Source: Vicinamibacterales bacterium
GTDB taxonomy: Bacteria; Acidobacteriota; Vicinamibacteria; Vicinamibacterales; JAENWD01
Reading direction: 5' to 3'
DNA length: 64,000 nt
Assembly (NCBI GenBank): GCA_036381155.1
Contig: DASVDJ010000159.1
Coordinates: 19,291-83,290, forward strand
Both the position numbers and the translations under genes were made by a program. The notes under the pieces are model-generated. The model searched no databases. It worked only from the letters and a program-made list of their open reading frames with translations, and was not told the DNA's origin. Every line of letters begins with the position of its first letter. Position 1 is the stretch's first letter. Positions 10,555 to 64,000 of the stretch are shown one piece after another.

Positions 10555-10593
10555 CATTGACGAACCGCGGGCGCGCTGTCAGGATCTCGCCCC

Positions 10594-11676: not shown

Positions 11677-11682
11677 TCTCCC

Positions 11683-13599: not shown

Positions 13600-13678
13600 T
13601 GGGCTGTCGGTCGGCGGCCGCGCAACGATCACATACTGGCCTGTGGGCGGGGCGTCGGCTCCGCGCGGGAGCGTGTGA

Positions 13679-44564: not shown

Positions 44565-44577
44565 CGGTGCCGGGGCG

Positions 44578-46272: not shown

Positions 46273-46403
46273 CGGACCCGTTTCGCCGCCTGGCCGAACC
46301 AAAAAGCCCTCCCGGCTGCCGGCTCAGGCTGACGTCCGGCCCTGCACCGGGCCCGCTCTGCACGGAAACACGCGTCTCGTCCCCGAATTGCGCCATCGGT
46401 ACC

Positions 46404-46477
46404 TTGACGGCGAACCGGCGACGGCCCTAGTATCCACATACTACTGGTCGGACCACTCCCCAGGGCTACCAGTGGTC
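46404..46477 (+). promoter_or_regulatory. candidate promoter plus GntR/FadR-like palindrome upstream of the TonB-dependent receptor
   Basis: TTGACG (46404-46409), 18-nt spacer, TAGTAT (46428-46433). TGGTC-G-GACCA follows at 46445-46455, with a second inverted pair GACCACT (46451-46457) / AGTGGTC (46471-46477). Confidence 0.4.
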
Positions 46478-46636
46478 ACGCCGTCGCTCTCGGGCGAAGG
46501 TCGTTATCCCGCAAAGAGGCCGGCGTGTTGACCTCGTCGACGCGTCGGATCTTCCCCACCGCGCGTCGCCGATCTGTGTGCGTTGCGAAGGGACCGCGTA
46601 CCACTTCCAGCGCGTCCCCGCGAAAGGAACCTGGTC

Positions 46637-49600
46637 ATGCTCCGTTTCTGTGCGTGGAATTGCGTGCGAATAGCCGTCGCCGCGCTGGCCGTACTCTGGT
46701 GTTCGGCGCCACCGGCCGCCGCCCAGGCGGTGTACGGCAGCATCAGCGGAACCGTTGTCGACGAGAGCGGTGCCGTCCTCCCCGGCGTCACCATCACGAT
46801 TACCAGCCTCGAGCGCAAGACCGTCGATACGGTCGTCACCAACGAAGCCGGCTTCTTCCTCCGCGAGCGCCTGCTGCCGGGCACCTACGAGGTGAAGGCG
46901 GAGCTCGCAAGCTTCAAGACCGCCATCGTGCCCGAGGTCGTCGTGCGCGTCGACACGCAGACGCCGCTGAGCTTCCGGCTCGAGGTGGGCGCGATCGCCG
47001 AGACCGTCGAGGTCACCGGCGGGTCGCCACTGCTCAAGACCGACCGCGCCGACGTCGCGACCACGTTCGACGAGCGCCAGCTCACCGATCTCCCCGTCGT
47101 CGACCGCAACTTCACGAAATTCATCCTGCTGACCCCCGGCACGCAGCAGCTCGGCTGGCAGCACGCGGCCAGCGAGAACCCGCAGGGCTCCGTGCAGACG
47201 ATGGTCAACGGGCAGCATTTCAGCGGGACGGGGTACCAGCTGGACGGCACCGAGAACCGTGACCCGATTCTCGGCATCATCGTCATCAACCCGAACCTCG
47301 ACGCCATCGGCGAGTCGAAGATCACGTCGCAGAACTACGACGCCGAGTTCGGCCAGGCGATCGCGGGCGTCGTCTCGGTGCAGACCAAGTCGGGCAGCAA
47401 CGAGTTCCGTGGCAGTGCGTTCGAGTTCTGGCAGGGGGACAAGTTCCAGGCGCGCAATCCGTTCTCGCAGGCGCTGCCGGATCCGCTGACCGGGCGCTTC
47501 ATCCCCGAGACCAGCAAGCACCAGTTCGGCGGCACGTTCGGCGGGCCGATCTCGCGGAACCGGACCTTCTTCTTCGGCGCGTATCAGGGGCAGCGGCAGA
47601 CGCAGGGCGGGTCGCGCCTGCTGACCGTGCCGACCGCCGCGGCACGGACGGGCGACCTGAGCGCGTACGGCATCGACATCTTCGACCCGGCCAGCGGCGC
47701 GCGTCCCGAGGACCGCGTGCAGTTCCCGGGCAACGTCATCCCGCAGAACCGGCTGTCGCCGCAGGCGCTGGCGCTGCTCAACCTGATCCCGCTGCCGAAC
47801 GCGCCGGGCGTGGAGAACGGCACGCGCGAGAACTACATCGCCAGCGGCAGCGAGACCTTCGACGGGAACCAGTTCGACGTCCGGATCGACCACCGGCTGA
47901 GCGCCGACGCGAACCTGTTCGGACGCTACTCGCTCGCCGACTACCTGCGTGACGGGCCGACGGCGTTCGGCCAGGGCGGCGGCCCCGAGTTCGTCAGCCT
48001 GGGCGGCGTCTCGGACGTGCGCAACCAGAGCCTGGCCTTCGGCTACGACCGGACCCTGTCGCCGACCCTGCTCGCCGACTTCCGGTTCGGGTGGTTCCGC
48101 TACGACGTCGACGTGCTGCCGTTCGACTTCGGGACGACGCCGGCGGCGGATGCGGGCATCCCGGGCCTGAACCTCGACACGACGTTCACGAGCGGTCTGC
48201 CGGCGATCTTCGTCGAGGGCATCGGCGGGTTCAACGCCGGGTCGGGGCTCGGCGTGAACCGTTGCAACTGCCCGCTCGACCAGGACGAACAGCAGTGGCA
48301 GGTGGTCGGCAACGTCACGAAGCTCTGGGGCAACCACACGTTCAAGTTCGGCGTCGACGTCCGGCGCGCGTACAACCTGCGGGTGCCGAGCGACGCGCAC
48401 CGGTCGGGCGAGCTGACGTTCAACACCGACCGGACGCGTGGTCCGTCGGGCGGCGGCATGGGGCTGGCGACGTTCCTGCTGGGTGACGTCACGCGGCTGG
48501 CGCGCTACGTCAGCACCAGCACGAACGCGCGCGAGCGGCAGTGGCGCCACTTCTACTACGCGCAGGACACGTGGCGACCGACGCCGCGCCTGACCCTGAA
48601 CTACGGCCTGCGGCTCGACGTCATCAACCCGCAGACCGTCAACGAGCCGGGCAACGGCGGCTGGCTCGACCTGACGACCGGCGAGATCCTCGTCGCCGGC
48701 GTCGGCGGGATCGACCTGGCGGGCAACGTCGAGAACCGGCTGAACTGGGCGCCGCGGCTGGGGGCGTCGTTCAACCTCGACGAGCGCACCGTCATCCGCG
48801 CCGGCTACGGCCGCAGCTACGACATCGGCGTGTTCGGGTCGCTCTTCGGCCACAGCGTCACGCAGAACCTGCCGGTGCTGGCGTTCCAGGAGCTGCGCGG
48901 CGCGGAGAACTTCGACGCGGCGTTCAACCTGGCCCAGGGGCCGAGCGCGCCGGTGTTCCCCGAGGTGCCCGGCAACGGGCGGATCCGCCTGCCCAACGGC
49001 ATCAACACCCGGGCGCTGCCGACGAAGCAGCGGCCGCCGGCCGTCGATGCCTTCAACGTCACGCTGCAGCGGCAGCTGACCGACACGATGGCGGTGGAGA
49101 TCGGGTACGTCGGCAACCGCGGCCGGCGGGTCTTCGCCGGCGACGGGCCGGAGGTGAACGCCAACGAGCCGACGCTCGAGGGCTTCGCGCAGGGCGTGCC
49201 GCGCAACGAGCGGCTGCCGTTCTTCGCGCGGTCCGACGGCACGATCAACCGGACGCCGTACCTGGGGCTCGGCGGCGGGTTCGGATGGACGCAGGGCATC
49301 GGGTACTTCTGCAACTGCGCCAACAACTGGTACGACTCGCTGCAGACGCGCCTCGACAAGCGCTTCTCGAACGGCTACGCCGTGCAGGTGAACTACACCT
49401 GGCAGCGGGCGCGCGGCGAGGGCGGCAGCTACTTCTTCTGGGACCGCACGCTCGAGCGCGGCGTCCAGGACTGGGACCGCACCCACATCCTGAACGCGAC
49501 GCTCGTCTGGGAGCTGCCGTTCGGGCGTGACAAGCGGTGGGGCGCGGACTGGTCGACCGCCATGGATCTGGTGCTCGGCGGCTGGCAGTTCAACGCCACC

Positions 49601-50059
49601 CACACGATCCAGAGCGGGCTGCCGTTCAACGTCACCTACGCCGACGCGGGCGCGGATCGGGACGTCGGCCCCAACCGGCCGAACCTGATTGGCGATCCGG
49701 AGGGCCCGAAGACGCGTGACCAGTGGTTCAACACGGCGCCCATCGGCTCCCCGAACAGCGCCTTCGCGCGGCCGGCGCCGGGCACGTTCGGCAACCTCGA
49801 ACGCAACGCGCTGCGCGGGCCGTACTACCGGCGCACCGACGCGTCGCTGTTCAAGCACTTCCGGCTTGGCGGCAACCGCGATCTGGAGGTCCGCATCGAG
49901 GCCGTGAACCTGTTCAACGTCGTCAATCTCGGCAACCCGGACAGCGAGATCGGCACGGAGAACAGCCCGCGGCCGAACGCCGGGCGTATCAGCTCCACGG
50001 CGTACGGCGGGCTTGACCCGCAGCGGAACCTGCAGTTCGCGGTGAAGTTCAGGTTCTGA
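46637..50059 (+). CDS. TonB-dependent receptor with N-terminal carboxypeptidase-regulatory-like domain
   Basis: Trimmed to MLRFCAW at 46637. GSISGTVVDESGAVLPGVTITIT..TNEAGFF is CarboxypepD_reg-like. The C-terminus is ...LQFAVKFRF, a terminal aromatic. Confidence 0.85.
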   Translation: MLRFCAWNCVRIAVAALAVLWCSAPPAAAQAVYGSISGTVVDESGAVLPGVTITITSLERKTVDTVVTNEAGFFLRERLLPGTYEVKAELASFKTAIVPEVVVRVDTQTPLSFRLEVGAIAETVEVTGGSPLLKTDRADVATTFDERQLTDLPVVDRNFTKFILLTPGTQQLGWQHAASENPQGSVQTMVNGQHFSGTGYQLDGTENRDPILGIIVINPNLDAIGESKITSQNYDAEFGQAIAGVVSVQTKSGSNEFRGSAFEFWQGDKFQARNPFSQALPDPLTGRFIPETSKHQFGGTFGGPISRNRTFFFGAYQGQRQTQGGSRLLTVPTAAARTGDLSAYGIDIFDPASGARPEDRVQFPGNVIPQNRLSPQALALLNLIPLPNAPGVENGTRENYIASGSETFDGNQFDVRIDHRLSADANLFGRYSLADYLRDGPTAFGQGGGPEFVSLGGVSDVRNQSLAFGYDRTLSPTLLADFRFGWFRYDVDVLPFDFGTTPAADAGIPGLNLDTTFTSGLPAIFVEGIGGFNAGSGLGVNRCNCPLDQDEQQWQVVGNVTKLWGNHTFKFGVDVRRAYNLRVPSDAHRSGELTFNTDRTRGPSGGGMGLATFLLGDVTRLARYVSTSTNARERQWRHFYYAQDTWRPTPRLTLNYGLRLDVINPQTVNEPGNGGWLDLTTGEILVAGVGGIDLAGNVENRLNWAPRLGASFNLDERTVIRAGYGRSYDIGVFGSLFGHSVTQNLPVLAFQELRGAENFDAAFNLAQGPSAPVFPEVPGNGRIRLPNGINTRALPTKQRPPAVDAFNVTLQRQLTDTMAVEIGYVGNRGRRVFAGDGPEVNANEPTLEGFAQGVPRNERLPFFARSDGTINRTPYLGLGGGFGWTQGIGYFCNCANNWYDSLQTRLDKRFSNGYAVQVNYTWQRARGEGGSYFFWDRTLERGVQDWDRTHILNATLVWELPFGRDKRWGADWSTAMDLVLGGWQFNATHTIQSGLPFNVTYADAGADRDVGPNRPNLIGDPEGPKTRDQWFNTAPIGSPNSAFARPAPGTFGNLERNALRGPYYRRTDASLFKHFRLGGNRDLEVRIEAVNLFNVVNLGNPDSEIGTENSPRPNAGRISSTAYGGLDPQRNLQFAVKFRF

Positions 50060-50064
50060 CGCAG

Positions 50065-50114
50065 GGCCGAACTCCAGTTCGGCCGAACCCGTAGGGCCGA
50101 ACTTCAGTTCGGCC
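50065..50114. repeat. two REP-like hairpins after the receptor gene
   Basis: ggccgaactccagttcggcc at 50065-50084 and ggccgaacttcagttcggcc at 50095-50114. Confidence 0.75.
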
Positions 50115-50204
50115 AGACCTTGGCCGACGGCGGACAGAGAACCGACGCATGCAGGGCGGGCGCTATCAGCCCCGCCCGCATGCGCCCGCTTCCTCTGCCA
50201 TCCC

Positions 50205-50234
50205 CTTGCAGACCCCCGCTGTACCCGGTATACT
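50205..50234 (+). promoter_or_regulatory. candidate promoter of the tRNA gene
   Basis: TTGCAG (50205-50210), 18-nt spacer, TATACT (50229-50234), 12 nt before the tRNA 5' end. Confidence 0.5.
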
Positions 50235-50245
50235 GAATCGGTTGA

Positions 50246-51912
<1,667 letters not shown>

Positions 51913-51916
<4 letters not shown>

Positions 51917-52110
51917 CGTAGGGTCTCGTCGAGTTTGCCGCCCTGCTCGGCCAGTGCTCGCTCGAACGTCTCCCGGGCAGCTTCACGAGCCAGGATCTGA
52001 ACAAGTGTCCGGAGCATCTCCGTCTCTCGATCGAGCGCCTCGTCCTTCCGGTCACGACGACCGGCTCCGACGAGGCTCGCTGCACGATCTGGCTTCTCCC
52101 GACGAGTCAT
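51913..52110 (-). CDS. small helical hypothetical protein (possible directionality factor)
   Basis: 65 aa. ATGA overlap with the recombinase start. Weak RBS. Confidence 0.4.
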
Positions 52111-52135
52111 AATAGCGCCGATCCGTTACCTGCGC

Positions 52136-52555
52136 TCAGCCCTCGCGCAACTCCTTGGCCACACAACGTGAGTTTCGCGGGGCGCGGAACACATCTCGAA
52201 CACCCAGGGAGGGCAAGTCCAGCACCTTAGCGTCCGCCAAGTTCGGCTCGTGCCGCACTGCCTGCCAACCGGCGTGCATGAGGCCTGGTGGGAGCACCTC
52301 AATGGCATCTCCGCCCGCAGCGGGCAAGGAAGTTGTCACGGCCGCTGTTGCTTGCCGTGGAAACCGATGCACCTCGCGTCTGCGTGGGTCGAGGCTCGTT
52401 CCGGTCTTCGTCGTCGCGTGCTGGTTCCTTGACGAGACGTGTAGCCGTCTGGCAGCGCTCACCTGTGCTCGGTTTCCGTCGGGAGCGGGGGCACGTCCGT
52501 CGCCGATCATTCGCGTAACGTCGGCAGCATTGTCGATTGCTCCTTCGTAGTCCAC
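52136..52555 (-). CDS. hypothetical protein
   Basis: Track ORF 52136..52714. I prefer the in-frame GTG at 52555, preceded by AGGAGGAGA. The ATG at 52579 is immediately flanked by the pyrimidine arm of a hairpin. Composition is unremarkable, so coding status is uncertain. Confidence 0.3.
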   Translation of the reverse strand: MDYEGAIDNAADVTRMIGDGRAPAPDGNRAQVSAARRLHVSSRNQHATTKTGTSLDPRRREVHRFPRQATAAVTTSLPAAGGDAIEVLPPGLMHAGWQAVRHEPNLADAKVLDLPSLGVRDVFRAPRNSRCVAKELREG

Positions 52556-52579
52556 CGGTCTCCTCCTCTTGCGCGGCAT

Positions 52580-52620
52580 CTTCGAGGGAAGGCTCGATCG
52601 CTGCCCGCCTTCCCTCGAAG
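52580..52620 (-). promoter_or_regulatory. perfect 13-bp-stem hairpin 12 nt after SpoVG-like gene 1
   Basis: CTTCGAGGGAAGG (52580-52592), 15-nt loop, CCTTCCCTCGAAG (52608-52620). Confidence 0.7.
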
Positions 52621-52631
52621 GACGCCAGTGT

Positions 52632-52934
52632 TCAGGTGTCCGATTGACCGCTCTCCGCGGCGTAGGCCTGCAGCACGAGCTGACGGAGGCGGTCCTCGGC
52701 GCTCCGGTCGTCAACGGCGCGGATCAGTGAAAAGTTGCGCCGCTCTCCGTTCACCATGAACGGGCGCGCCGGGAAGGTCACATTGCGGCCCGATCCGTTG
52801 CGCTGTCGCCAGATGGCGAAGCCGAGCAGCTTCAGACCATCGAGCTCTCCGCCGATGAACTGCAGCTCGGCATCCGCCAGCTTGTCCTGCGGTGTGTTCT
52901 TCTCGTTGCGAACGATATTGACCGTGATCGTCAT
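52632..52934 (-). CDS. SpoVG-like small nucleic-acid-binding protein, paralog 1 (assignment by pattern only)
   Basis: 100 aa with an AAGGAG RBS. The layout KLADAELQF..GLKLLGFAIW..GRNVTFPARPF..GERRNFSLIR..LRQLVLQAY parallels SpoVG (beta-strands, then the P-containing loop, then the helix). Paralogous to 56387..56710. Confidence 0.5.
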   Translation of the reverse strand: MTITVNIVRNEKNTPQDKLADAELQFIGGELDGLKLLGFAIWRQRNGSGRNVTFPARPFMVNGERRNFSLIRAVDDRSAEDRLRQLVLQAYAAESGQSDT

Positions 52935-52976
52935 GGGGTCTGCTCCTTACATGCGCTCGCATCGGCGAGCCGGGCG

Positions 52977-53402
52977 TTATGCGTGTGCGGCGTGCGCCTG
53001 CTCCTCTTCGAGCGGTGCGCCGAGCCGCTGCCACAGCCAGTTCTGCAAGGTGTTCAAGCCGACGAGCACCGGATCCGCGGGTACGAACAGGTGCCCGTGC
53101 TCGCGGCAGCGCCGCTTCTGCCACGAACGTTCCGTGGCGTCGACGAGAATCAGCCGCGCCTTCGTCCTGGCGCGACACGCATCGAAGACGATCTCGTCGA
53201 GGGCCAGTCCCGACACGTCCGCGAGCGGCGCGGTGTAGAGCGTCATCGTGGACGGAGCATCGAGGGCGGCCGGTGCGGTCGTGATGTGGGCGTAATAGAG
53301 GCGTGTGTGCCGGCCGATCGTCACCCCGATGCTGGGTGTGATCGACGTCGTGTTCATCGCTGGTCCTTCCTTTCGAATCGAGCCCAACGTCCAAGCGGTC
53401 AT
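52977..53402 (-). CDS. hypothetical protein
   Basis: 141 aa from the ATG at 53402, which makes an ATGA overlap with the upstream small ORF. Alternatively 126 aa from the ATG at 53357, which has an AAGGAAGGA RBS. Confidence 0.5.
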   Translation of the reverse strand: MTAWTLGSIRKEGPAMNTTSITPSIGVTIGRHTRLYYAHITTAPAALDAPSTMTLYTAPLADVSGLALDEIVFDACRARTKARLILVDATERSWQKRRCREHGHLFVPADPVLVGLNTLQNWLWQRLGAPLEEEQAHAAHA

Positions 53403-53581
53403 GAACCTGCCGGGCCATCACGTAATTGCGAGAAGCCGGGCTCGACCGAGGGCCTCGTCAAGGGCGCCAGCCGCGCGGAGCGCGGTCGGAGCCAGGCGAT
53501 GCAGGCGGAGATCCTTGACGAGCCCGAGGCGAGCCGGACAATCGGACCCGTGATGGCCCATAGCAGACAGCCGTCCGTCAT
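53399..53581 (-). CDS. possible 60-aa ORF
   Basis: GAAGGAG lies 7 nt upstream of the ATG at 53581. Its stop overlaps the ATG at 53402. No recognisable features. Confidence 0.25.
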   Translation of the reverse strand: MTDGCLLWAITGPIVRLASGSSRISACIAWLRPRSARLAPLTRPSVEPGFSQLRDGPAGS

Positions 53582-53826
53582 CGGGCGGTTCTCCTTCGCA
53601 GGGAGCGAGACCCGCGCGCACACGAGCCTCGCCCCCGGTTGTCCATGCGAAGCACGATGCTTCGCGCGGGCCTCAACGGTGTTCTGGTTCTCAGAGAGCC
53701 GCTGGGCTTGATGGCGCAAGCGGCGATGCAGGCGATCTCGGTCGCCTCAGGAACGGGCGGGGTTGAACCCGCACCCGCACATCTGGTGGGCGCCGCGGGG
53801 CTGTGCCCGCACGGCGGATGACCCGG

Positions 53827-54933
53827 TCAGTGGACCGTGGTCAGGAGTCGGCTGGCGGCGCGGTCGAGTGCGAATCGGTGATCCTGCCACGGGGTGCGCT
53901 GACTGAGTCGCGTTAACCCTTGCACATACCCCCAGACGGATCGGGGATTCGTCTCGTACTGCTCGGCAAGCGCGTAGGCGTGTGCAGCCTGCTTGCGCGA
54001 GAGCTCCACTCGCGCGGTAACGGCATCGAGCACCGCGTCTCGCGTCGGCCCCAGCTCGTGGGTCGTGGCCCGGAGGAGCAGCGTCCGATCGTCGGCGGCG
54101 CCTGTGTCGAGCGCCGAACGCACCGCCTCCAGTGAGTCGGTCCACGCCGCGTGAATGGACCCACCTACGTGCCGGCGCCGAAAGCTGGCGACGTGCCGGA
54201 AGCCCCAGATGATGTTGTTGCCGCACACGGCGCGGTAGAGAAACACATCCAGGGTCAGGGCGGCGGCGCCCACGTCGCTGTTCCGGATGATGAACCCGCG
54301 GAACAACCCTCCGTGCGACCGGTCGGTGGGATCGTCGAGATCACGGTTGCCGTCGATCAGGAAGAGAAACATGTCTCGATCTCCCAGATACGCGCCGGAG
54401 GGCACGAGCTCGGCCCCGTACACGCCATCCTTGTACCCGAGCGGCAGGTGCCACGCCGGATGAGCGGCCATGAGGTCGAGCACCCGGGCGGCCAGGTCGT
54501 CGTGGTGCACCCGCGCGTACCTCGGCGAGGTGATCGCGTGGATGGTCCACGGCGCTTCGCGATCCGCGAGGACTTGATGCGCCTCGCGGTGTGGCCGCTC
54601 GAGGCCCACGTTGATCGCGCTCGACGCGATCGGCGCGGGCAGTGTCCGGAGGTACTTCGGCGGCGCGCCGACAATCGCGGCAAGCTGCTCGAAGCTCCAG
54701 TGCGTCAGCGGAGCGGTGCGACCCGACGCCTCTCGCACGACGAGGTCGTCGTCTGTTTCCGCCGCTGTTCGAACCTGGTGAGTCTCGATGGTGCGCTCTT
54801 CGGTGCGTGCCCGCCGGACGCGAGCCGCCTCGTAGAGCGCCGAGACGCTGGCGAACCGTTCGTCGGGCGGCCGCGTGGCCCATTCCCGATGCGCGGTATA
54901 CGCCGTGACCGCAGATACACCAGTCCTCTGCAT
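53827..54933 (-). CDS. DUF932-like (phage/plasmid-like) protein
   Basis: 368 aa with an AAAGGAG RBS. GFIIRNSDVGAAALTLDVFLYRAVCGNNIIWG resembles the NSEVG...C.N motif I associate with DUF932. Confidence 0.6.
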   Translation of the reverse strand: MQRTGVSAVTAYTAHREWATRPPDERFASVSALYEAARVRRARTEERTIETHQVRTAAETDDDLVVREASGRTAPLTHWSFEQLAAIVGAPPKYLRTLPAPIASSAINVGLERPHREAHQVLADREAPWTIHAITSPRYARVHHDDLAARVLDLMAAHPAWHLPLGYKDGVYGAELVPSGAYLGDRDMFLFLIDGNRDLDDPTDRSHGGLFRGFIIRNSDVGAAALTLDVFLYRAVCGNNIIWGFRHVASFRRRHVGGSIHAAWTDSLEAVRSALDTGAADDRTLLLRATTHELGPTRDAVLDAVTARVELSRKQAAHAYALAEQYETNPRSVWGYVQGLTRLSQRTPWQDHRFALDRAASRLLTTVH

Positions 54934-55056
54934 ACAGTGCTCCTTTCTGTGCCCTGAGGGCGATCGAGTGAGGAAGCATCTCCACGTCGCTGGACGATGC
55001 GTGGAGGGGTGGCCGGGATGGCCACAGGCGAGAAAACTGGAGACGCTACGGTGGGC

Positions 55057-56235
55057 TCATGCCGGCTCCTTTCCGTTTTCGAGGGTCGGCTGTCCGTCGG
55101 CCTCGTGATTCGATGCCAGGTATTCGCGCCGTAACAGCACGGGACCGATCTTCCTGGTCACGACGAGGGTGAGCTGTGTCAGACGCGGGACGCCGGGATC
55201 CCGTCGCCAGATGAACTCGCGGAGGTGCAGGGCCACGTGGGCGTCCGGCACGAGGGCCTTGACCTGCTGCAGCAACGACCATTGGTCCTTCGTCATCGTT
55301 CGCACCGGATGGCCGAAGACCACGAAATCCCGTTCGGTCACGTTGGATCGCTTCCGACGGAGCCATTGCTCGACGTGCGCGCGCATGCGCTCGACACCAT
55401 CATGCGTGTAGCGCGGCCGGTCCGCGACCGCGCGGAACGCCTGGTCGGCCATGGCCTCCTTGATCTCCGACGGAGGGAGCAGCCTGGCCGCCAGCCGCGC
55501 CTGCTGGTCCGGTGTACCGTGCTTGTTGATCCACGCGGTCATCGCCTGCCACCGTTCATCGCGCAGGCGCACGTGCTCAGCGCGCTCGCGGGCACGCCGT
55601 TCGCGTGCCGCGTTGACATCGGCCCGAAACCGTCGCAGGGCCTCGCGCGGCACGTCACGGGCGGGCCCAGTGTCGAGCTTCCGGTCGAAGCGGAGGTGCC
55701 CGTACGGGGTCGCAAGATAACAGCGTCTGGGCGTCGGCGAGGGGTGAGCGAGCGCCCGCTGCGTCGGATCGGCGAGAAAGGCCAGAGCGATCTCGGTGCG
55801 ACGAACCCGATCGGTGTCCGCGCGCTGGTCGCGCGCGATCGTCCGCTGCGCATGGTACGCGCGCTCGAGCTGATGATTGCGTGCGGCCAGCCGCAGCAGC
55901 TCGTCGATCGTGGGCGGCTCGTCGTAGATCGGCGCCCTGTCGATGCAGATGACGCGCTGATCCGCGTCGAGCTCGTATCGGGGGCGGAGCTTGAGGCGTG
56001 CCACGCCGTGGCCGTTGACGGTGACAAGGTGCAGGCGATTCGCCGGGACCTCGAACGTGATGCGCTGCACCGCGCGTCCGTCGCCGCCGGCAAGCAGCGA
56101 GGCCTTCCGGCCCGCCTCGGACAGGTGGTACACGGCGGTCACGGTCAATGCCTGAGCCGTCGCTGGACCGGGCAGTGTCGTCGGTGTGTTGACCTGCTCT
56201 GAATGAACCAGCACGGGGCGGGCCAAGGATTCCAT
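55057..56235 (-). CDS. hypothetical protein, 392 aa
   Basis: Long ORF co-directional with its neighbours. Arg-rich helical central region. No family recognised. Confidence 0.6.
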   Translation of the reverse strand: MESLARPVLVHSEQVNTPTTLPGPATAQALTVTAVYHLSEAGRKASLLAGGDGRAVQRITFEVPANRLHLVTVNGHGVARLKLRPRYELDADQRVICIDRAPIYDEPPTIDELLRLAARNHQLERAYHAQRTIARDQRADTDRVRRTEIALAFLADPTQRALAHPSPTPRRCYLATPYGHLRFDRKLDTGPARDVPREALRRFRADVNAARERRARERAEHVRLRDERWQAMTAWINKHGTPDQQARLAARLLPPSEIKEAMADQAFRAVADRPRYTHDGVERMRAHVEQWLRRKRSNVTERDFVVFGHPVRTMTKDQWSLLQQVKALVPDAHVALHLREFIWRRDPGVPRLTQLTLVVTRKIGPVLLRREYLASNHEADGQPTLENGKEPA

Positions 56236-56300
56236 GACGCGATCCTTTCCGGTCAGCGGCTTTGCTGAAACCTCACGTGACGGAAACGGGGGCTGTGCCC

Positions 56301-56325
56301 CCTCGAGGCCCTGAGGGCGTCGAGG
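56301..56325 (-). promoter_or_regulatory. two-tier stem-loop, copy b
   Basis: Minus-sense CCUCG-AC-GCCC-UCA-GGGC-CU-CGAGG. Confidence 0.6.
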
Positions 56326-56346
56326 GGGAGACAGCCGGGCGGTCGG

Positions 56347-56371
56347 GGTCGAGGGCCTGAGGCCGACGACC
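56347..56371 (-). promoter_or_regulatory. two-tier stem-loop, copy c
   Basis: Minus-sense GGUCG-UC-GGCC-UCA-GGCC-CU-CGACC. Confidence 0.6.
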
Positions 56372-56386
56372 GGTCACCCTGAGGAT

Positions 56387-56710
56387 TCACTCGGTCTGCA
56401 TCTCGACGCGGCTGAACGCGTCGAGGATGTAGTCCCGAATGGCCTCCTGCGCGCTGGCATCCCCGTTGGCGGGACGGAGCAGCGCGAAGCTCCGGCGTTC
56501 TCCGTTGACGGAGTACTGCCGGGCCGGGAACGTGACGTTCCTCCCTCCGGTCCGTCGTTCCCAGATGGCGAAGCCGATCAGCTTGAGCCCGCTCAGCGGG
56601 CCGGCGCCGGCTTCGAAGGTCAGTTCCGCATCGGCCAGCTTCCCCGGAGGGTTGCCGGACGTGTTGGGAACGACCCGTACGGACACGAGTTCCGTCTTGC
56701 CTTTGGTCAT
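56387..56710 (-). CDS. SpoVG-like small nucleic-acid-binding protein, paralog 2 (assignment by pattern only)
   Basis: Track ORF trimmed to MTKGKTELVSV at 56710 with a GGAGGA RBS. KLADAELTF..GLKLIGFAIW..GRNVTFPARQY..GERRSFALLR aligns residue for residue with 52632..52934. Confidence 0.55.
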   Translation of the reverse strand: MTKGKTELVSVRVVPNTSGNPPGKLADAELTFEAGAGPLSGLKLIGFAIWERRTGGRNVTFPARQYSVNGERRSFALLRPANGDASAQEAIRDYILDAFSRVEMQTE

Positions 56711-56727
56711 GGAGTCCTCCATTTGGA

Positions 56728-56752
56728 CGCCGAGGGCCTGAGACCGACGGCG
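56728..56752 (-). promoter_or_regulatory. two-tier stem-loop, copy d, in the 5' leader of SpoVG-like gene 2
   Basis: Minus-sense CGCCG-UC-GGUC-UCA-GGCC-CU-CGGCG. The inner stem keeps pairing through a G.U wobble only on the minus strand. Confidence 0.6.
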
Positions 56753-56880
56753 TAGGCGAAGGTTCCGGCGGATCCTGGGGATGCCGCGGAACGGGGTGGG
56801 ACGCACGGCTCTGGGAGCGCGTGCGTGCTGACGGGCAGAGCCGTCTGTATACCTATAAGAACCCGGTCACGACGGCAAAA

Positions 56881-58382
56881 CTAACGGGAGGTTACCAGAC
56901 GAACGCGACGCTGCTCAGTCAGCGATTGCCGATAGAAGGAGCGGGCCAGCGCACACGCTCGCGTCAACTTCGAGCGCTGCCAGATCGACCTCGTGTCGAG
57001 GGTCCCGGAGGACAGGCTCCTGCGTGATGCCTGCGCGATCGGCGCGATGCTTCGACGATGAGGGCAGTCAGCGGCGACAGGCCGGCCGTGAGCGCACCCA
57101 GCCGTCAACGCTGATGACCACGTCAGCCGGAATCTGCCTGCGGGAACGAGTGACAGAAGCGCAGGGCCAGCGAGAAACGCCGCCGCCGCACCAAGCGCGC
57201 CGCCGGCGAGCGAGAGCACGGCGCCTTCTGCGAGGAACTGGCGAACGAGCCGTGCGCGGCTCGCGCCCAGGGCCAGCCGCGTGGCGATCTCGTGCCGGCG
57301 CGAGATGGCCCGCATCAGCAGCAGGTTGGCTACGTTCGCGCAGCCGATCAAGAGGACGAGCGCCACGGCACCGCCGACCACGAGCAGCGGCAGGCGGACA
57401 TCGCTCAACATGGCGTCGTGCAGCAAGGTCACCCGCGCGATGAGATCGCGGGGCCGGTCGGGATTTGGCGGCAGGTTCCGTATCCAGGTTTCCAGGTCGG
57501 CCTGAGCCTGTTCGCGTGTGATGCCTGGTTTCACCCGTCCGATCACCGGCCTGATGACCCCGAGGCCTGGGCCGGGGCGGATCGCGTGCGGGATCCAATA
57601 CTCGGCGTTGGCAGGATACGAGAAGCCGCGCGGAAGAATGCCGACGATGCAATAGAGCGATCCGTTGAGCGTAATCGTCGTGTTGACGATGCGCGGATCG
57701 CCGCCGAACTGCCGCTGCCAGAGGCTGTCGGAGATCAGCACCGTGTTCTATCCCGGCTGTTCGTCTTCGGCGCCGAACGTGCGCCCCATCGCGGCGCCGA
57801 CGCCGAGAACCCGGAAGAAGTCGACGGTGACCGCGGCGCCCGTGAGTTGTGTGGCCGCGCCCGCACCCGCCAATGTCGATTCTGCCTGGGAGATCATGGC
57901 GATCGACTCGAAGGTACGGTTGGCGTCGCGGAAGTCCACGTAGTAGCCTTGCTCGCACATGCCCGGGCAGAGCCAGGCTGGTCTAAGACTCTAGACTAGG
58001 CGACGTGTACGAGATTGCGAACAGCCGGTCGGCGTCGGGGCAGGGAAGCGGCCGGAGGAGAACGCCATGCACGACGGTGAACATGGCGGTTGTTGCGCCG
58101 ATGCCGCGGGCCAGCGCGGCCGTCGTGAACGCCGGGCTGCGCCGCATCGCGCGTACCGCGTGACGCACGTCCCGCGCGAGATCATCGAGCCACGGCAGCC
58201 CGCGCTGATCGCGCAGCGCCTCCATCGCCGCGAGCTGTCCGCCCGCCTTAGTGAGTGCGGGGCGGCCCGCTTCGGCGGCCCATCTCCGCATGCAGTCGCG
58301 GCTACTCGGCCAGATCTTCGTCGCTCCGTCGCGGGCGTACCACCCCGAGGAGGCGAGCGCTCCATTCACGCAGCCAGCGCAT
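56881..58382 (-). pseudogene. decayed, 3'-truncated ADOP-type (FtsX/MacB-like) ABC permease
   Basis: Collinear fragments lie in different frames. MRWLREWSARLLG..DEDLAE is the C-terminal end of track ORF 58302..58709. LARDVRHAVRAMRRSPAFT...LLRPLPCPDADRL is in 57983..58369. MacB_PCD-like fragments are in 57748..57960 and 56881..57741. The FtsX helices are broken by further frameshifts near 57060-57140. The second half of the duplicated permease is absent. Confidence 0.75.
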
Positions 58383-58613
58383 GTCGGGTCCCTGCGCGTT
58401 GCCCCTTAACGGTGCATGGAAGATGCGCGTCTTCCCAGTCACGGCGGCGCAGCAGTTTATTAACCGTGCCAATGGAGCGTCCGCCAACTGTATCTGAATG
58501 CCAAATAGAAGCGGGAGTCGGTTCCTTGGCCACGCCGGCGTCTCCGGATGTGGGACCGGAGGTGACCCGAAGCGCGCGTTGACAGCCATTCCGGCCGTAC
58601 CGACTCGCGAAAG

Positions 58614-58694
58614 CCCCTTGCAACGACCCGCGAACGCCCCTTGCACCGACACCCGGAAGCTGCCTTGCACCAGTCGTGAACCCCGTGTACAAGG
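58614..58694 (+). repeat. three direct CCTTGCAMC repeats plus an inverted copy upstream of the 804-aa gene
   Basis: ccccttgcaacgac at 58614-58627, ccccttgcaccgac at 58637-58650, tgccttgcaccagt at 58661-58674 (23-24 nt spacing), then gtgtacaagg at 58685-58694. Confidence 0.6.
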
Positions 58695-58903
58695 TCGCGA
58701 GATGGCCATATGCTCGTCGTTGCTGGCGCTCCCCGCAGGCCTCCTGCTGGCAGCGCTGTGCTGGCGGGAGGGCAGGGCATTCGGTCAACCACGAGCGGAA
58801 AATCCCGGGCGCCTCAAGGGTTCGCTCGCTCCGCTCGCTGGCGGCGCGCGCTTGCTCGGCCCGGCGCGCTCCCATCGTACTGGCATTTGCCGGGGATCGA
58901 CGT

Positions 58904-61318
58904 ATGACCGTGAATAGCCTGCGCAAACGCGCATGGCACTTCGGCTTTAGAGTCCGGTTCGGCGTCCGCAAGCTTGTGACTCTTGCGCGCAAAGTGATCC
59001 CGAGTTTCGATGTTGCCCTTCGGGCTGCGCTGTTCGTCGGCACGGCACTTGGTCTTGGGGCATTCATCAACGCCGCCGCCGACCTCAGTCGTCTCACAGC
59101 GGAAACGTTGATCAATGTGCTGATCGCCATGGGGACGATGTTCGGCGGTGTGCTTGCAATCGTGTTTGCATTATCGAGCTTCATGCAACAGAACGCGGCA
59201 GATCTGTACTCATCGCAGTTCTACGAGGTGTACGCTCGGGATTGGCGAGAGAAACTGATCTTCAGTGCGATTGCCGTACTGACGGTTCTTTCCTTCGCGC
59301 TCGCCATTTTTCAGGACACCGCGATCGTCCCGTTGCGACCGTCTTTCTTGGTGTACGTGATCCTGCTTGTAACTGCTGCCGTTTTCGCGCTCGTCGATTG
59401 GCAGTACAAGCTGGTCACCAAGAAGATCAACCCGCTGATCGCCCTGGCGTTTCTCGAACGACAGTGCATGAAGTCTCTTGAGTCCGCACACGATCTCGCT
59501 AAACACCTCGCGTCCTGGCTGCGGATCAGCAATGAACAGCTCACCGAAGAGCAAGCATTGGCTGTCAGTTACAGCCGATTCGTCGCACCGTATCTGACAC
59601 ACGTAGATCGTCAGCTTGATCATCTCACCGAGATTTCGCTCCGGCTGGCCGCGAAAGGCGAGCTGCTGGCGACGCAGAGAGGGCTAGCGAGCGCGCACAA
59701 CGTCTTAGCAAAGTACCTACAATTCCGAAAGGATTCGTCGCTTGCGATACCTGCGGGTCCGTACTTGATGGCGGTTGAAAGCGATAGCCAATGGTTCTTG
59801 GCAAGAACGTTCCAGCGAATTAACACAGCCGGCGAAATGTTGATGGCTCAACGTCAGTCCGCATCGGTTGTTTTCCTCATGGATCTGTACGCTTCGTTGG
59901 CTACGTATGCGAAAGAGGTGCAATTCCTCAATCGCCCCGGTGAAAACCCGATTATCGACCAACTGAGAGGTTACATGAGCGGCCTCTTGGACGCCGCGAT
60001 TCGAGTCGATGATGTGGAGGTCTGTTTTCGAAGCGTCGCTGTGTCACGAGCGATTGGGACTGCGGCGGTTGAGCGCAAGCTCCACTCAGCCACGCGGTGT
60101 GCAGTCTACGGCGACCTTACGAAGGTCGCGATGTGGGCGATCGCAAGCAAGAAGCCCGTGTTTATCGAACACTGCACGGATGCCATGGTTCAGTTGATCG
60201 GCAAGTCAATCAATGACGATGGTTCTGGGCTCGACACCGAGCTGGCCGAAGCGTTCGATCGGCTCACCACGATAACGAGCACGATGTATACGGCTGTATC
60301 CGCCGGACTGGTGCCCAGCGCTATCGACACTCAAATCATGGTTGGTAAGTGTTACGGGCAATTGGCGGCAGTACTCGCGGCCGTGGTTGATCGATACGAA
60401 CGCCTGATAGAGGGACACGAGAAACGAGCGCTGGGGTGGAACCTCGCCGCGTGCTTCAAAGCACTATACCGAAGCCTTCGAGAGATGTCGGAGGTGCTGA
60501 AGAACTGCGACGCTCCGGTCGTGTTCAATATTGCATCCCTGATCGAGGAAATCCTCAAGATGTTGGTTCGCCTCTCGACCGACACGAAGGGGCTACGTGA
60601 GCGCCACGAGTTTGAAAAGCAGTTGAGCTGGTACGTCCACCTGCCGGGTTGGTTTGTAGAGCATGCCAGCAACGTCACGTTAACAGATGCGTTCGACACA
60701 CTGGCCGACATCGGTCCAAAGGTTGGACTCCAGCTTCTGCACCGCAACGCTCCGTCGGACTCCATTGTGAAATGCGCCCAGGCAGCGTTCTCCATAACGA
60801 AACAGATGCTAGCGAAGCTTAAAGGTGGATACGCGTACGCTGAGCCACGTCACATGCTGACGGTGTGCTACTTGGGCATCGTCGCATTGAAACAGGGAGC
60901 CATCGGAAGTGGTGTTGTCCAGGCAATCCTATCGATGGTTCGAGAGTTCGAGGAACTCTACCGCAAGAAGTACTTCAGCACGTTTACACCACCGGCCGGC
61001 AATTACATGGACCCGAGGCCGCAGCAACTGATGGTGGAGGTGCTTCGCTGGAGAAGCGATGTCATTCGTGAGCGATACAACATCCCGCCACTGTTGGACC
61101 GCTCGCGCGACATCGTGCGCCAGATGGTCGACGTTGCTGACATTGATCGGTTCATTTTTGAGGTGTGGCGCATGGTGCCATCAGACAGTCCGATCAAGGC
61201 TGAATTGACGGACCGGCAGCGCCGCCACGTTCTGATGCTGAGATTGTTGCGTCTCTTGAGTGCTGAACTGCAACGGCGGCAGCCCGTAAATGCACCTGCA
61301 CAGACAGACGACGCTTAA
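58904..61318 (+). CDS. orphan 804-aa protein: four N-terminal TM helices plus a long helical cytoplasmic region; no family recognised
   Basis: Track ORF trimmed to MTVNSLRKRAW at 58904 with GGGGA upstream. TM segments: ALFVGTALGLGAFINAAA, LINVLIAMGTMFGGVLAIVFAL, LIFSAIAVLTVLSFALAIF, FLVYVILLVTAAVFALV. Spot GC counts are 48-62% (about mid-50s) against about 70% for the host. It is the only plus-strand gene in the island. Confidence 0.75.
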   Translation: MTVNSLRKRAWHFGFRVRFGVRKLVTLARKVIPSFDVALRAALFVGTALGLGAFINAAADLSRLTAETLINVLIAMGTMFGGVLAIVFALSSFMQQNAADLYSSQFYEVYARDWREKLIFSAIAVLTVLSFALAIFQDTAIVPLRPSFLVYVILLVTAAVFALVDWQYKLVTKKINPLIALAFLERQCMKSLESAHDLAKHLASWLRISNEQLTEEQALAVSYSRFVAPYLTHVDRQLDHLTEISLRLAAKGELLATQRGLASAHNVLAKYLQFRKDSSLAIPAGPYLMAVESDSQWFLARTFQRINTAGEMLMAQRQSASVVFLMDLYASLATYAKEVQFLNRPGENPIIDQLRGYMSGLLDAAIRVDDVEVCFRSVAVSRAIGTAAVERKLHSATRCAVYGDLTKVAMWAIASKKPVFIEHCTDAMVQLIGKSINDDGSGLDTELAEAFDRLTTITSTMYTAVSAGLVPSAIDTQIMVGKCYGQLAAVLAAVVDRYERLIEGHEKRALGWNLAACFKALYRSLREMSEVLKNCDAPVVFNIASLIEEILKMLVRLSTDTKGLRERHEFEKQLSWYVHLPGWFVEHASNVTLTDAFDTLADIGPKVGLQLLHRNAPSDSIVKCAQAAFSITKQMLAKLKGGYAYAEPRHMLTVCYLGIVALKQGAIGSGVVQAILSMVREFEELYRKKYFSTFTPPAGNYMDPRPQQLMVEVLRWRSDVIRERYNIPPLLDRSRDIVRQMVDVADIDRFIFEVWRMVPSDSPIKAELTDRQRRHVLMLRLLRLLSAELQRRQPVNAPAQTDDA

Positions 61319-61586
61319 TTAAACTAAGCTAATCAATTATCGCGAAGTCGTAGCTGAACTTAGAGATGTGTGGGCGCATCAATCGCCTCCTACGGGTGCG
61401 GCGCGCGGAATCCGCTCGCCTCACCGAAGCATCGCAGAGCGCGAAGGCTCGCCTCCTTCCACGGATGAGCTTAGCGTAAACTGATCCCGGCCGCCCAGAG
61501 GGGACGATGCCCCACCGCCTCCGGCGCTGGGTTTTCGACGAGCCGCCGAGAATGGTCGTCGCAGCGGGTGATCTTGGAAACGACCC

Positions 61587-62543
61587 TCAGGTGAGTAGAC
61601 CGCCCCGCGCGAGTCCGCCGATTGGTTCGCGGCCATAGCGTCTCGCCCGCCGCAGCTTGTCCAGTAGTTCCCGCTCGGACCATGGCGGCTGGCATCGAGT
61701 GTTCCAGTCGCTGATCGCACGGAGCGCCTGATCATCTCCAAGCGCGAACCCGCGCACGAGCCGACAGCACACGCGGAACGTGTGGGCGTCGCCGTGCTGA
61801 CCGGCGATGGCCGGCGGCACGCGCTCGAGATATCGGCGCGCCCGGTCCACGGTACTGCGTTCATCGACTCGAAGAGAGGTAGCACGCGCCGGCGCCGGCG
61901 CCCGCACGACTGGCGGCGTCGCGTCGCACCGGGCAGCGTCGCGGGACACTTGCACCGCGGGAAAATCTGGCGGGGTGTACACGCGGTCCAGACGTCCGTA
62001 CTCGACGGTCACGAGGTGAGCGGACGCGTACTTGTGGTTGTTGAAGCCCGGCAGCCGGGTGGTCTGCGTCGCCGGCGTCGCGGCAGGATCCGTATCGAGT
62101 TCGCTGGCGAGCCTTTTCTGGAGCGCCTCGATGCAGTGAGGTTCGAAGGCGGTCACCCGCCAGAAGATGTGAACGCGGTTCGGCGATGAATGCAGGATGT
62201 ACGACGGCTCTGGCAGATCGGATCGGGCGGCGATGCGCGCGAGGACGCCTGGGCCATCACGATCCGCCTCCAGGAACGCATGGCGGATCGCGCCCACGGA
62301 GTCGCGCGTCCGCGTCCGCTTCCATGGCGCAATTGCGTTCACGCCGCAGTACACGTTGAACTTCTGCGAGTTCTTGAATCGGAGCCACGCCTGGAAGCGC
62401 GGATGCATCACCCAGTCGAGCGGCCCGACGCGCTGGGTGACCTGTCCCGTCTCGTACGACTTCAGGAAGATCGCGACCCAATCGTCGGGTTCGAACGCGG
62501 TCTGAAGGAATCTGAGCGGCGCCTCAGGGTCGATGGCAGCCAA
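61587..62543 (-). CDS. RepB-family DNA primase-like protein with PriCT-like C-terminal domain
   Basis: NVYCGVN...IRHAFLEADRD...PEPSYILHSSPNRVHIFWRV...TRLPGFNNHK follows the RepB-primase pattern. The C-terminal GDAHTFRVCCRLVRGFALGDDQALRAISDWNTRCQPPWSEREL is primase-C-terminal-like. Confidence 0.6.
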   Translation of the reverse strand: MAAIDPEAPLRFLQTAFEPDDWVAIFLKSYETGQVTQRVGPLDWVMHPRFQAWLRFKNSQKFNVYCGVNAIAPWKRTRTRDSVGAIRHAFLEADRDGPGVLARIAARSDLPEPSYILHSSPNRVHIFWRVTAFEPHCIEALQKRLASELDTDPAATPATQTTRLPGFNNHKYASAHLVTVEYGRLDRVYTPPDFPAVQVSRDAARCDATPPVVRAPAPARATSLRVDERSTVDRARRYLERVPPAIAGQHGDAHTFRVCCRLVRGFALGDDQALRAISDWNTRCQPPWSERELLDKLRRARRYGREPIGGLARGGLLT

Positions 62544-62556
62544 GGTTCGATCCCCG

Positions 62557-63039: not shown

Positions 63040-63047
63040 CGTCGGAC

Positions 63048-64000
63048 TCACCTCCGAAACGAGCGCTCATCCCGGCGCGCGTCTGCCGCCGCGCCGTCCA
63101 GGGTCTCTAGCTCGAAGCGTTCCGACGCAGGATCGTACCCGCGAATCCCGACAACTTCCGTCACCTTCCGAAGCCCATCCACACGTGCAATGTGCACGAC
63201 GAGGTGGATCGCCAGCGAGATGGCTTCGCGGACGCTGCGATGCGGCAGGCCCACGTTCGCCGTGAGTACGCAGTGGGCGAGGCGTGTGAGCGCCTGCTCC
63301 GCTGAGTTGGCGTGGATGGTGCTCAAGCTGCCGAGGTGGCCGGTGTTCAACGCCTGGAGCAGGTCGAACGCTTCGGGACCGCGCACCTCGCCGACAAGAA
63401 TCCGATCCGGGCGGTGACGTAGCGTGGCACGGACGAGATCGGAAATCGTCACGGCCGGCACTGGGGTCTCCTGGCCGAGTGGGATCTGAGCACGTCGGGC
63501 CTCGAACCGGACGAGGTTCGGCTTGTCGATGAGAATCTCCGAGGTCTCCTCGATGAGCACGATGCGATCGCCCTCAGGAATCTTCGCGGCGAGCGCGTTG
63601 AGCAGTGTCGTCTTGCCGGTACCGGTCCCTCCTGAGATGAGGATGTTCCTTCGGTCGTCGACCGCACGCCGGAGCCGTGCGGCGACGTCCTCACTGAGCG
63701 TGCCGACTGAAACCAGCTCGTCCAGCGTGTACCGGTGCGCGAACTTCCGCACGGTCAGCGTCGGTCCGTCGACGGAGCAGGGCGGAAACATTGCCGCCAC
63801 TCGTGACCCGTCTTCGAGGCGCGCGTCCAGCATCGGCTGGTGATCGGAGATCTCGTCCCCGCATGCTCTCGCGATGTTCTTGATGGCCACGGTCAGGTTC
63901 CGGACCTCCAGCGTCCGATCGGGCACCGCCTCCACGAGGCCGTGCCGCTCGACGAACACCCGCGTGCCGCCTCCGTTCACCATCACCTCGGTGACGCTCG
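63048..64000 (-). CDS. VirB11/CpaF(TadA)-type secretion ATPase, 5' end probably outside window
   Basis: Walker A is GGTGTGKTT. RILVGEVRGPEAFDLLQALNTGHLGSLSTIHANS is present. The frame is still open upstream of the ATG at 63986 (..SVTEVMVNGG). Confidence 0.85.
   Translation of the reverse strand, partial: SVTEVMVNGGGTRVFVERHGLVEAVPDRTLEVRNLTVAIKNIARACGDEISDHQPMLDARLEDGSRVAAMFPPCSVDGPTLTVRKFAHRYTLDELVSVGTLSEDVAARLRRAVDDRRNILISGGTGTGKTTLLNALAAKIPEGDRIVLIEETSEILIDKPNLVRFEARRAQIPLGQETPVPAVTISDLVRATLRHRPDRILVGEVRGPEAFDLLQALNTGHLGSLSTIHANSAEQALTRLAHCVLTANVGLPHRSVREAISLAIHLVVHIARVDGLRKVTEVVGIRGYDPASERFELETLDGAAADARRDERSFRR

Follow-up and report, generated by a model that had tools for sequence, protein, structure and literature searches.

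The DNA analysed here, referred to as the window, is a stretch of 64,000 nucleotides (nt) with a GC content of ∼70% from a Vicinamibacterales bacterium (GenBank assembly GCA_036381155.1, contig DASVDJ010000159.1, positions 19,291 to 83,290 of the forward strand). We examined a block of minus-strand genes between positions 52136 and 56710 that a first-pass annotation, made from the sequence alone, had described as an island of unknown genes with two copies of a SpoVG-like protein. In the order in which they are read, the block contains VG2 (SpoVG-like paralogue 2, 107 amino acids (aa), 56387..56710), p392 (392 aa, 55057..56235), a DUF932 protein (368 aa, 53827..54933), a long-hairpin non-coding element of 148 nt (model R1, 53412..53559), p126 (126 aa, 52977..53357), and VG1 (SpoVG-like paralogue 1, 100 aa, 52632..52934). 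These are followed on the same strand by a large serine recombinase of 545 aa (50279..51916) and on the plus strand by a tRNA-Met (CAT) gene (50246..50322). The five protein-coding genes of the block are under purifying selection, with ratios of nonsynonymous to synonymous substitution (Ka/Ks) of 0.04–0.42 overall when computed against four relatives (0.22–0.42 for VG2, 0.14–0.33 for p392, 0.04–0.20 for DUF932, 0.14–0.33 for p126, and 0.11–0.30 for VG1).

To place the block, genes were called in 84 related loci (numbered with the prefix L) and in the window by the GC contrast between codon positions, and the products were clustered. In what we term context A (27 loci plus later additions), the genes run in the order VG2, p392, DUF932, (RadC), p126, VG1, (HTH_17), and integrase, where the RadC-like JAB protein that follows DUF932 in the relatives was recognized by Pfam (9.5e-32), the HTH_17 gene is of the excisionase type (Xis), and the recombinase is either a tyrosine integrase or a serine recombinase. 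A VG gene followed p126 in all 25 non-redundant loci with a gap of ∼40–70 nt, VG2 stood directly before p392 in 13 of the 16 judgeable loci and also in L099 and L101, and both pairs were present in 14 non-redundant Vicinamibacterales/Acidobacteriota loci (12 plus L099 and L101). The gene order is strongly conserved, and the co-occurrence on which the first-pass annotation had let its proposal depend was indeed found. Upstream of VG2, L095 encodes a TraG-type coupling protein, a VirB11-like ATPase, a 157-aa protein, and a RepB primase. L099 and L101 add TrbI/VirB10, DUF4141, TrbL/VirB6, and VirB8 ahead of the coupling protein/ATPase/primase set, and in both loci the VG2-p392 pair is followed by variable genes (helix-turn-helix regulators, Gp49/HTH_37 toxin-antitoxin genes, RadC, and ParB) and then by DUF932, p126, VG1, HTH_17, and the integrase. 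The VirB11-like ATPase orthologues of L095, L099, and L101 are 333 aa long and lie between the coupling protein and the primase.

The window contains counterparts of these transfer genes on its minus strand. A RepB'-type DNA primase of 318 aa (61587..62543; Pfam RepB_primase, 7.6e-15) occupies the same position as in L095, L099, L035, L041, and L050, and a VirB11-like secretion ATPase (63048..63986; Pfam T2SSE, 1.3e-43) lies at the edge of the sequence, where the window probably ends short of its N-terminus. Of the transfer genes, only the ATPase and the primase are reached before the window ends. Because the relatives carry type IV secretion genes and the window itself carries the primase and the ATPase, we conclude that the block is the integrase-proximal end of a family of integrative and conjugative elements (ICEs) and not a self-contained island. 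The earlier view that the arrangement lies outside described ICEs does not hold, nor does the decayed permease upstream of VG2 form a border: GC at third codon positions (GC3) of the island type continues to the window end, and the module genes for the primase and the ATPase lie beyond the permease (61587–63986). No description of this ICE family was found in the literature searched.

The other end of the element is set by the recombinase, which had been correctly named as the neighbor of the block and has the Resolvase (5.5e-25), Recombinase (1.4e-22), and Zn_ribbon_recom (6.9e-08) domains of a large serine recombinase. Its orthologues, at 66–77% identity, come after VG1 in L008, L026, and L042. 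The adjoining tRNA-Met gene, identified by ARAGORN and by Rfam (tRNA, 67 bits), is the integration site of the element, and other relatives are integrated at tRNA-Ala or tRNA-Ser, with the tyrosine integrase adjoining tRNA-Ser in L035. A site-specific recombinase is found at the element end beside the attachment site in the window and in L008, L026, and L035. GC3 is 0.67–0.84 for the genes of the element from 50279 to 63986 and 0.92–0.95 for the host genes at 44019–50059. No second copy of the tRNA 3' end (attR) was found in the window, a negative result of no diagnostic value, since the element extends past the window end and serine recombinases can do without a long repeat. As a separate observation, the serine recombinase open reading frame (ORF) ends within the opposite-strand tRNA-Met gene in three independent loci, its 3' end overlapping the 3' part of the tRNA gene in the window (50279–50322), in L008 (4502–4578), and in L026 (8255–8331), so that the same DNA supplies part of the tRNA gene and the C-terminus of the integrase.

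Over 93 residues, VG1 and VG2 share 53% identity (E = 4e-31), and they contain the motifs quoted for them in the first-pass annotation, which had rightly called them paralogues. VG2 begins with an ATG at 56710 that is preceded 6 nt upstream by GGAGG. The idea that each copy heads a sub-block stands for VG2 and fails for VG1, which closes the p126-VG1 pair ahead of the excisionase and integrase genes. A search with VG1 yielded 7,795 homologues at E ≤ 1e-3 in a collection clustered at 90%, all of them unnamed and none with a Pfam domain, and an exhaustive profile search gave 1,702 clusters at 50% identity. The VG family had no match in Pfam, NCBIfam, PHROG, or PADLOC, so that the homologues did not prove to be an already annotated family, an outcome named in the first-pass annotation as refuting it; the VG family profile retrieved nothing meaningful, and no SpoVG, from PDB sequences, and tblastn with VG1 against plasmid and phage collections gave no match. 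VG relatives are encoded at 574 loci of species-representative genomes, nearly all of them in Acidobacteriota and mainly in Vicinamibacterales, with a few in Gemmatimonadaceae, Woeseiaceae, Acidimicrobiia, and Gaiellales.

Many of these relatives are not carried by ICEs. In context B (∼45 of the 84 loci), a single chromosomal VG gene occupies a core location, for which the gene identities read from the protein sequences give the order mutS2, dnaG, rpoD, a zinc-ribbon protein, rnhA, a YfiH-like gene, acpS, and VG, with a radical-SAM gene, ftsZ, ftsA, ftsQ, murC, and murG facing it on the opposite strand (for example in L052 at 8001–8303 and in L013, L053, and L066). A single conserved VG gene of the host thus closes a division/cell-wall cluster, and its place beside the division genes hints at a possible link to cell division. 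Host and ICE copies occur together in some genomes (PMZR01 and CAWDRS01). In a neighbor-joining tree, which was built on ∼100 residues and is indicative only, VG2 forms one clade and VG1 falls into several groups, some of them near the chromosomal clade, with the group that includes the VG1 of the window standing separate. We conclude that the ICEs carry, as VG1 and VG2, paralogues of a small single-copy host protein with a fixed core context.

The resemblance to SpoVG was examined by profile and by structure. With HMMER, the SpoVG family PF04026 did not match VG1, VG2, or 30 of their relatives even at E ≤ 10. The AlphaFold2 (AF2) model of VG1 (mean predicted local distance difference test score, pLDDT, of 80.7) consists of six strands and then a C-terminal helix. 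Among the viral models of BFVD, its top Foldseek match was a protein of Clostridium phage phiCP7R named 'putative SpoVG' (E = 4e-3, probability 1.0), with TM scores of 0.63/0.62 over the full length. The phage protein is a true homologue of Bacillus subtilis SpoVG (31% identity, E = 9e-7) and is annotated as pfam04026. When a 135-sequence VG alignment was compared with a 10-sequence SpoVG alignment using hhalign, one full-length collinear alignment was obtained (P = 8e-5 in global and 1.2e-3 in local mode, probability 19–33%). The comparison was repeated on the SpoVG core columns with 150 column-shuffled SpoVG alignments as the control: in global mode the score was 21.4 (probability 14%) as compared with 3.0 ± 2.6 for the shuffles, none of which reached it, and in local mode it was 21.8 as compared with 11.1 ± 2.3, with one of the 150 reaching it. 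A narrow VG alignment against a single SpoVG sequence gave nothing, the signal appearing only with wider alignments on both sides. A weak fold match of VG1 to DUF736, at rank 5, was set aside, no function for that family having been found in the literature. Since the structure and profile comparisons are weakly positive and HMMER is negative, the VG proteins are probably distant relatives that share a SpoVG-like fold, but they do not belong to the Pfam SpoVG family; the fold proposed in the first-pass annotation has weak but consistent support.

Among the block ORFs, only the DUF932 protein and the recombinase were matched in Pfam, PHROG, NCBIfam, or PADLOC, and none of the eight ORFs matched the PADLOC defense models at E ≤ 0.1. 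The DUF932 assignment, already made in the first reading, was upheld by PF06067 (25.3 bits, cutoff 23) and phrog_1362 (4.9e-25); a hit to a 'major head protein' PHROG (E = 0.049) was judged to be due to chance. Homologues of the DUF932 protein with 31–33% identity occur on 311 plasmids, mostly alphaproteobacterial and conjugative. The conjugative plasmid pOT1-7, for example, has the order H-NS, SSB, HTH regulator, DUF932, RadC, RadC, DUF6878, toxin-antitoxin genes, and a strawberry-notch helicase. The adjacency of DUF932 and RadC is therefore already present on conjugative plasmids, a further point on which the framing of the first-pass annotation needs correction. A full-text literature search found no paper assigning a function to DUF932. 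The p126 gene is the obligate partner upstream of VG1. An alignment of 17 relatives, 121–126 aa long, placed its start at the ATG at 53357, which confirms the gene and fixes at 126 aa a length that had been given as 126–141 aa. Its family comprises 2,179 homologues without any match in Pfam or the PDB, and a similarity to a haloacid dehalogenase among PDB sequences (E ∼ 0.03) was attributed to chance. The p392 family has at least 1,055 homologues. The confident AF2 model of p392 (pLDDT 86) begins with a beta domain, continues with two helices of 46 and 50 residues, and ends in an alpha/beta domain; there was no Pfam match, a relaxed scan of 45 relatives for a relaxase or Rep signal gave nothing consistent, and neither the sequence profile nor Foldseek (E ≤ 0.001) matched anything in the PDB. 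The p392, p126, and VG proteins were all absent from the plasmid and phage collections searched.

Between DUF932 and p126, a possible 60-aa ORF had been listed. Its Ka/Ks is ∼1.0, and the nucleotide divergence of the region is 0.12 as compared with synonymous divergences of 0.3–0.5 in the neighboring genes. This combination points to constraint on the nucleic acid rather than on a protein, and the ORF is replaced by the structured non-coding element at 53412–53559, which lies on the minus strand 55 nt upstream of p126. RNAalifold predicted 39 base pairs for the element. In an alignment of 24 sequences, 97.6% of the cells were paired, as compared with 82.9% in shuffled and 30–43% in slid controls, and 25 of the 39 pairs had changed on both sides, which none of 500 shuffles reached. 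Two stem segments, CCATCACG/CGTGATGG and CGTCAAGG/CCTTGACG, are invariant. A covariance model detected the element in 27 ICE loci, exclusively on the sense strand, and in none of the loci with the chromosomal context, with the best matches scoring 130–152 bits on the gene strand versus 28–50 bits on the antisense strand. The retention of a U-G pair in 23 of the 24 sequences is indicative of a single strand with sense polarity. An Rfam search of positions 50000–64000 at E ≤ 1 returned the tRNA alone, leaving the element unmatched. Scans for sigma-70 promoters and T-tailed terminators found no sites on the minus strand, as expected at such a GC content; the sole promoter-like match, TTGACG-16-GACAAT, is within the 5' arm of the element on the antisense strand. 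The element is a candidate origin of transfer (oriT), RNA leader, or single-strand priming site for the RepB' primase. A further copy was noticed in L035 (11981–12106, within the region 10406–14000), on the far side of the integrase and tRNA-Ser. Some 430 nt separate it from a 130-aa ORF downstream, which reads as TraD-like by sequence with no Pfam match; a MobA/MobL relaxase (1.9e-31) is also encoded there, and the locus may hold a tandem mobilizable element that shares a cis-acting site with the ICE.

Stable stem-loops follow each of the two paralogues, as the first reading had stated (z = −4.0 for VG2 and −2.3 for VG1). The intergenic region between VG2 and p392 (56236..56386, minus strand) contains two GC-rich hairpins (∼56347–56371 and ∼56291–56336) and folds with a minimum free energy of −75.9 kcal/mol, a stability that none of 200 shuffles attained; one or two hairpins occur at this position in all relatives, with differing sequences. 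The hairpin 3' of VG1 (∼52581–52619, −40.2 kcal/mol) is found at the same place in the relatives and there has a different sequence, a 13-bp stem in 13 relatives with compensatory changes in 8 of its 13 pairs. Over the 90 nt after the VG stop codon, the median z was −3.7 for VG2, −3.0 for VG1, and −0.6 for the chromosomal copies; strong 3' hairpins are thus specific to the ICE copies and are not a property of the host copies. The 5' leader of VG2 (56711..56820, minus strand, 110 nt) has a two-hairpin layout that is kept in 13 loci with differing stem sequences, whether cargo or the primase lies upstream. Structured repeats, also part of the original description, were found as well: a 19-nt motif (repeat family D2) occurs three times around VG2, once as the core of the second hairpin of the leader and twice 3' of the gene. 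A motif, GTGCGTCCCACCCC, is also conserved upstream of VG2.

The stretch between VG2 and the primase differs from that of the relatives. Frameshifted fragments of an FtsX/MacB-type permease (56881..58369, minus strand; FtsX 2.3e-11, MacB_PCD 2.5e-06; GC3 0.79–0.83) lie inside the element and are followed by an 880-aa ORF on the plus strand (58676..61318) in a stretch of 55–56% GC with no family match. As the primase directly precedes VG2 in relatives, the 880-aa ORF, together with the permease fragments, is apparently cargo inserted between the two. Metal-efflux genes are present at the same spot in L093, which makes the gap between the primase and VG2 look like a cargo site.

We lean, with modest confidence, toward the explanation that the block is an integrase-proximal accessory module of a Vicinamibacterales ICE family and that its VG proteins act on the hairpins that flank them. 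On this account, the full element would read type IV secretion genes, coupling protein, VirB11-like ATPase, RepB' primase, VG2, p392, (variable genes, RadC, ParB), DUF932, structured element, p126, VG1, (Xis), recombinase, and tRNA. VG1, VG2, and the host VG would be nucleic-acid-binding regulators or architectural proteins by analogy with SpoVG, whose binding of nucleic acids is established in Borrelia, Staphylococcus, and Listeria. The copies on the ICE may act on the VG2 leader, the VG2-p392 hairpins, the 148-nt element, and the VG1 3' hairpin, and in so doing might set the expression of establishment, excision, and transfer genes or buffer the host regulator, much as plasmid-borne H-NS-like proteins do. 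Enrichment of canonical SpoVG on mobile elements of Firmicutes has been reported (PMC6907783). Among the roles suggested in the first-pass annotation, element-specific regulation is the most plausible, and partition or replication control found no support. A more specific version can be put forward only tentatively and seems to us rather less than probable: the VG proteins, derived from the host regulator beside the cell-division cluster, would time excision, transfer, or establishment by binding structured RNA or single-stranded DNA, and the 148-nt element would be a new oriT or priming site recognized by p126/VG1 or by the RepB' primase; with the four hairpin regions, the proteins would make up a hitherto undescribed control circuit specific to this ICE family.

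Several observations weigh against the explanation that we favor. The link to SpoVG is weak, with no HMMER match and hhalign probabilities of just 14–33%, and no SpoVG was among the 50 PDB Foldseek matches listed for VG1, none of which had E ≤ 0.001. VG2 is missing from three ICE relatives, so that the presence of both copies is not a requirement. The 10 kb upstream of the module in L099 and L101 contained no relaxase, and no oriT was recognized for the family. Self-transmissibility of the window copy is unproven, the window being cut inside the element, and this copy, which is without RadC and Xis and has a pseudogenized permease, may be decaying. The hairpins 3' of VG1 and VG2 could also be plain terminators or attenuators of a high-GC organism.

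The 148-nt element lends itself to another explanation, in which it is the oriT, p126 and VG1 are its DNA-binding accessory proteins in a relaxosome, and VG2 and p392 take part in a related step of DNA processing. Genes for small accessory proteins usually adjoin oriT, as in the RP4, RSF1010, and Ti systems; the invariant stem segments are as would be expected for a site recognized by a protein, the element is confined to ICE loci, and its second copy in L035, upstream of the TraD-like ORF and the MobA/MobL relaxase, is in the usual position of an oriT and resembles a hitch-hiking mobilizable element that mimics its helper. We nevertheless regard a relaxosome as unlikely. No relaxase was seen beside the element in the ICEs and no nic-site consensus was recognized, the conserved G-U/U-G pairs fit RNA at least equally well, and a close homologue of VG in a core context of the host is unlike a dedicated relaxosome protein.

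Alternatively, the products of VG2, p392, DUF932, p126, and VG1 might be early-expressed establishment or anti-defense proteins of a leading region, serving to establish or protect the incoming single strand, with the hairpins as single-strand promoters or priming sites (Frpo/ssi) used together with the RepB' primase. A primase of the RepB' type requires specific single-strand initiation hairpins, as known from RSF1010. Leading regions are co-directional and have hairpin promoters (PMC11541004), and the genes from the ATPase to the integrase are co-directional except for the inserted 880-aa cargo gene. DUF932/RadC genes also adjoin SSB, H-NS, and toxin-antitoxin genes on a conjugative plasmid, and the 5' arm of the 148-nt element contains the promoter-like site. 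That site, however, is on the antisense strand, the VG hairpins are short perfect GC stems without −35 or −10 boxes, and no known anti-defense, SSB, PsiB, or Ard family was matched, which leaves a leading region quite improbable in our estimation. The strict adjacency of p126 and VG1 in 25 of 25 loci would also suit a toxin-antitoxin-like pair that stabilizes the element, the more so as the pair is downstream of DUF932-RadC, where pairs of the cbeA/cbtA type follow RadC in the CP4-type islands of Escherichia coli. Such addiction is very doubtful: neither Pfam nor PADLOC showed a toxin or antitoxin family, VG2 and the host VG gene are both found apart from p126, and relatives carry separate, recognizable pairs in the region (MazE/PIN and Gp49/HTH_37).

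Comparison with known systems separates what is familiar in the favored explanation from what is new. SpoVG proteins (PF04026; B. subtilis 2IA9, Staphylococcus epidermidis 2I9X/2I9Z, and phage phiCP7R) are, like VG, ∼100 aa long, their secondary structures appear to follow the same order of strands and then a C-terminal helix, the weak profile alignment shares a P-[SA]-[KR] ... G-E-x-R ... VLxxY pattern, and their genes are also found on mobile elements in Firmicutes. In contrast, identity is just 13–20%, HMMER finds no match to PF04026 or to the PDB SpoVG entries, phylum and genomic contexts differ, and the VG motifs KLADAEL, GLKLIGFA[IV]W, and GRNVTFPAR are not those conserved in SpoVG. The H-NS-like 'stealth' proteins, such as Sfh of R27 and Pmr of pCAR1, offer a parallel insofar as the element carries copies of a small host regulator, a role that for VG is putative, and pOT1-7, with H-NS and SSB genes beside DUF932-RadC, provides a precedent. 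Their fold is unrelated, however, and VG is present as two diverged copies at fixed positions with hairpins of their own. Neighborhoods of DUF932 and RadC occur on plasmids and in the E. coli CP4-type islands (YfjQ/YfjY), and there, as in the ICE relatives, DUF932 is followed by a RadC-like gene near integrase or AlpA-type genes, whereas the window copy has no RadC and the p392, p126, and VG proteins have no counterparts in the plasmid and phage collections. With the islands of leading regions (PMC11541004), the block shares co-directional small genes, transfer genes, a conjugative primase, and intergenic hairpins, but it has no known anti-defense gene and no similarity to known Frpo sequences.

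Accordingly, ICEs, DUF932-RadC neighborhoods, and elements that carry homologues of host regulators are already known kinds. New are the Vicinamibacterales ICE family, three unannotated protein families (VG-like, p392, and p126), the 148-nt element, and the fixed two-copy arrangement of SpoVG-like genes with structured elements of their own. Vicinamibacterales are among the most abundant soil bacteria, and to our knowledge their mobile elements are essentially undescribed. The present analysis defines a widespread ICE family of soil Acidobacteria that uses tRNA sites and interchangeable serine and tyrosine recombinases and can carry metal-efflux cargo, and the 148-nt element is a concrete candidate for the site at which transfer or priming starts in these ICEs. 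If VG is a remote branch of SpoVG, this type of regulator would extend to Acidobacteria, with a host copy at the end of a cell-division cluster, and the ICEs would be another case of conjugative elements that carry copies of a host regulator.

Two of the ORFs proposed between VG1 and the recombinase were not supported as genes. The ∼139-aa ORF (within 52136–52714), in the spacer at 52111..52631 (minus strand) that also contains the VG1 3' hairpin, showed a flat GC content across the three codon phases and had no homologue in the related loci, and no remnants of Xis/HTH_17 or RadC were found in the window. The 65-aa ORF (51913..52110, minus strand), whose stop overlaps the start codon of the recombinase, is doubtful: its codon-position signal is weak, no Shine-Dalgarno motif was seen upstream, Pfam, PHROG, and NCBIfam gave no match, and it had no homologue in any locus, even in those with a recombinase that is 77% identical. 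Finally, on the host side of the integration site, between the end of a 1158-aa ORF (46583–50059, plus strand) and tRNA-Met, we noted two tandem 30-nt units (50060–50119) that are 87% identical and each contain an internal palindrome (GGCCGAACT.CAGTTCGGCC).

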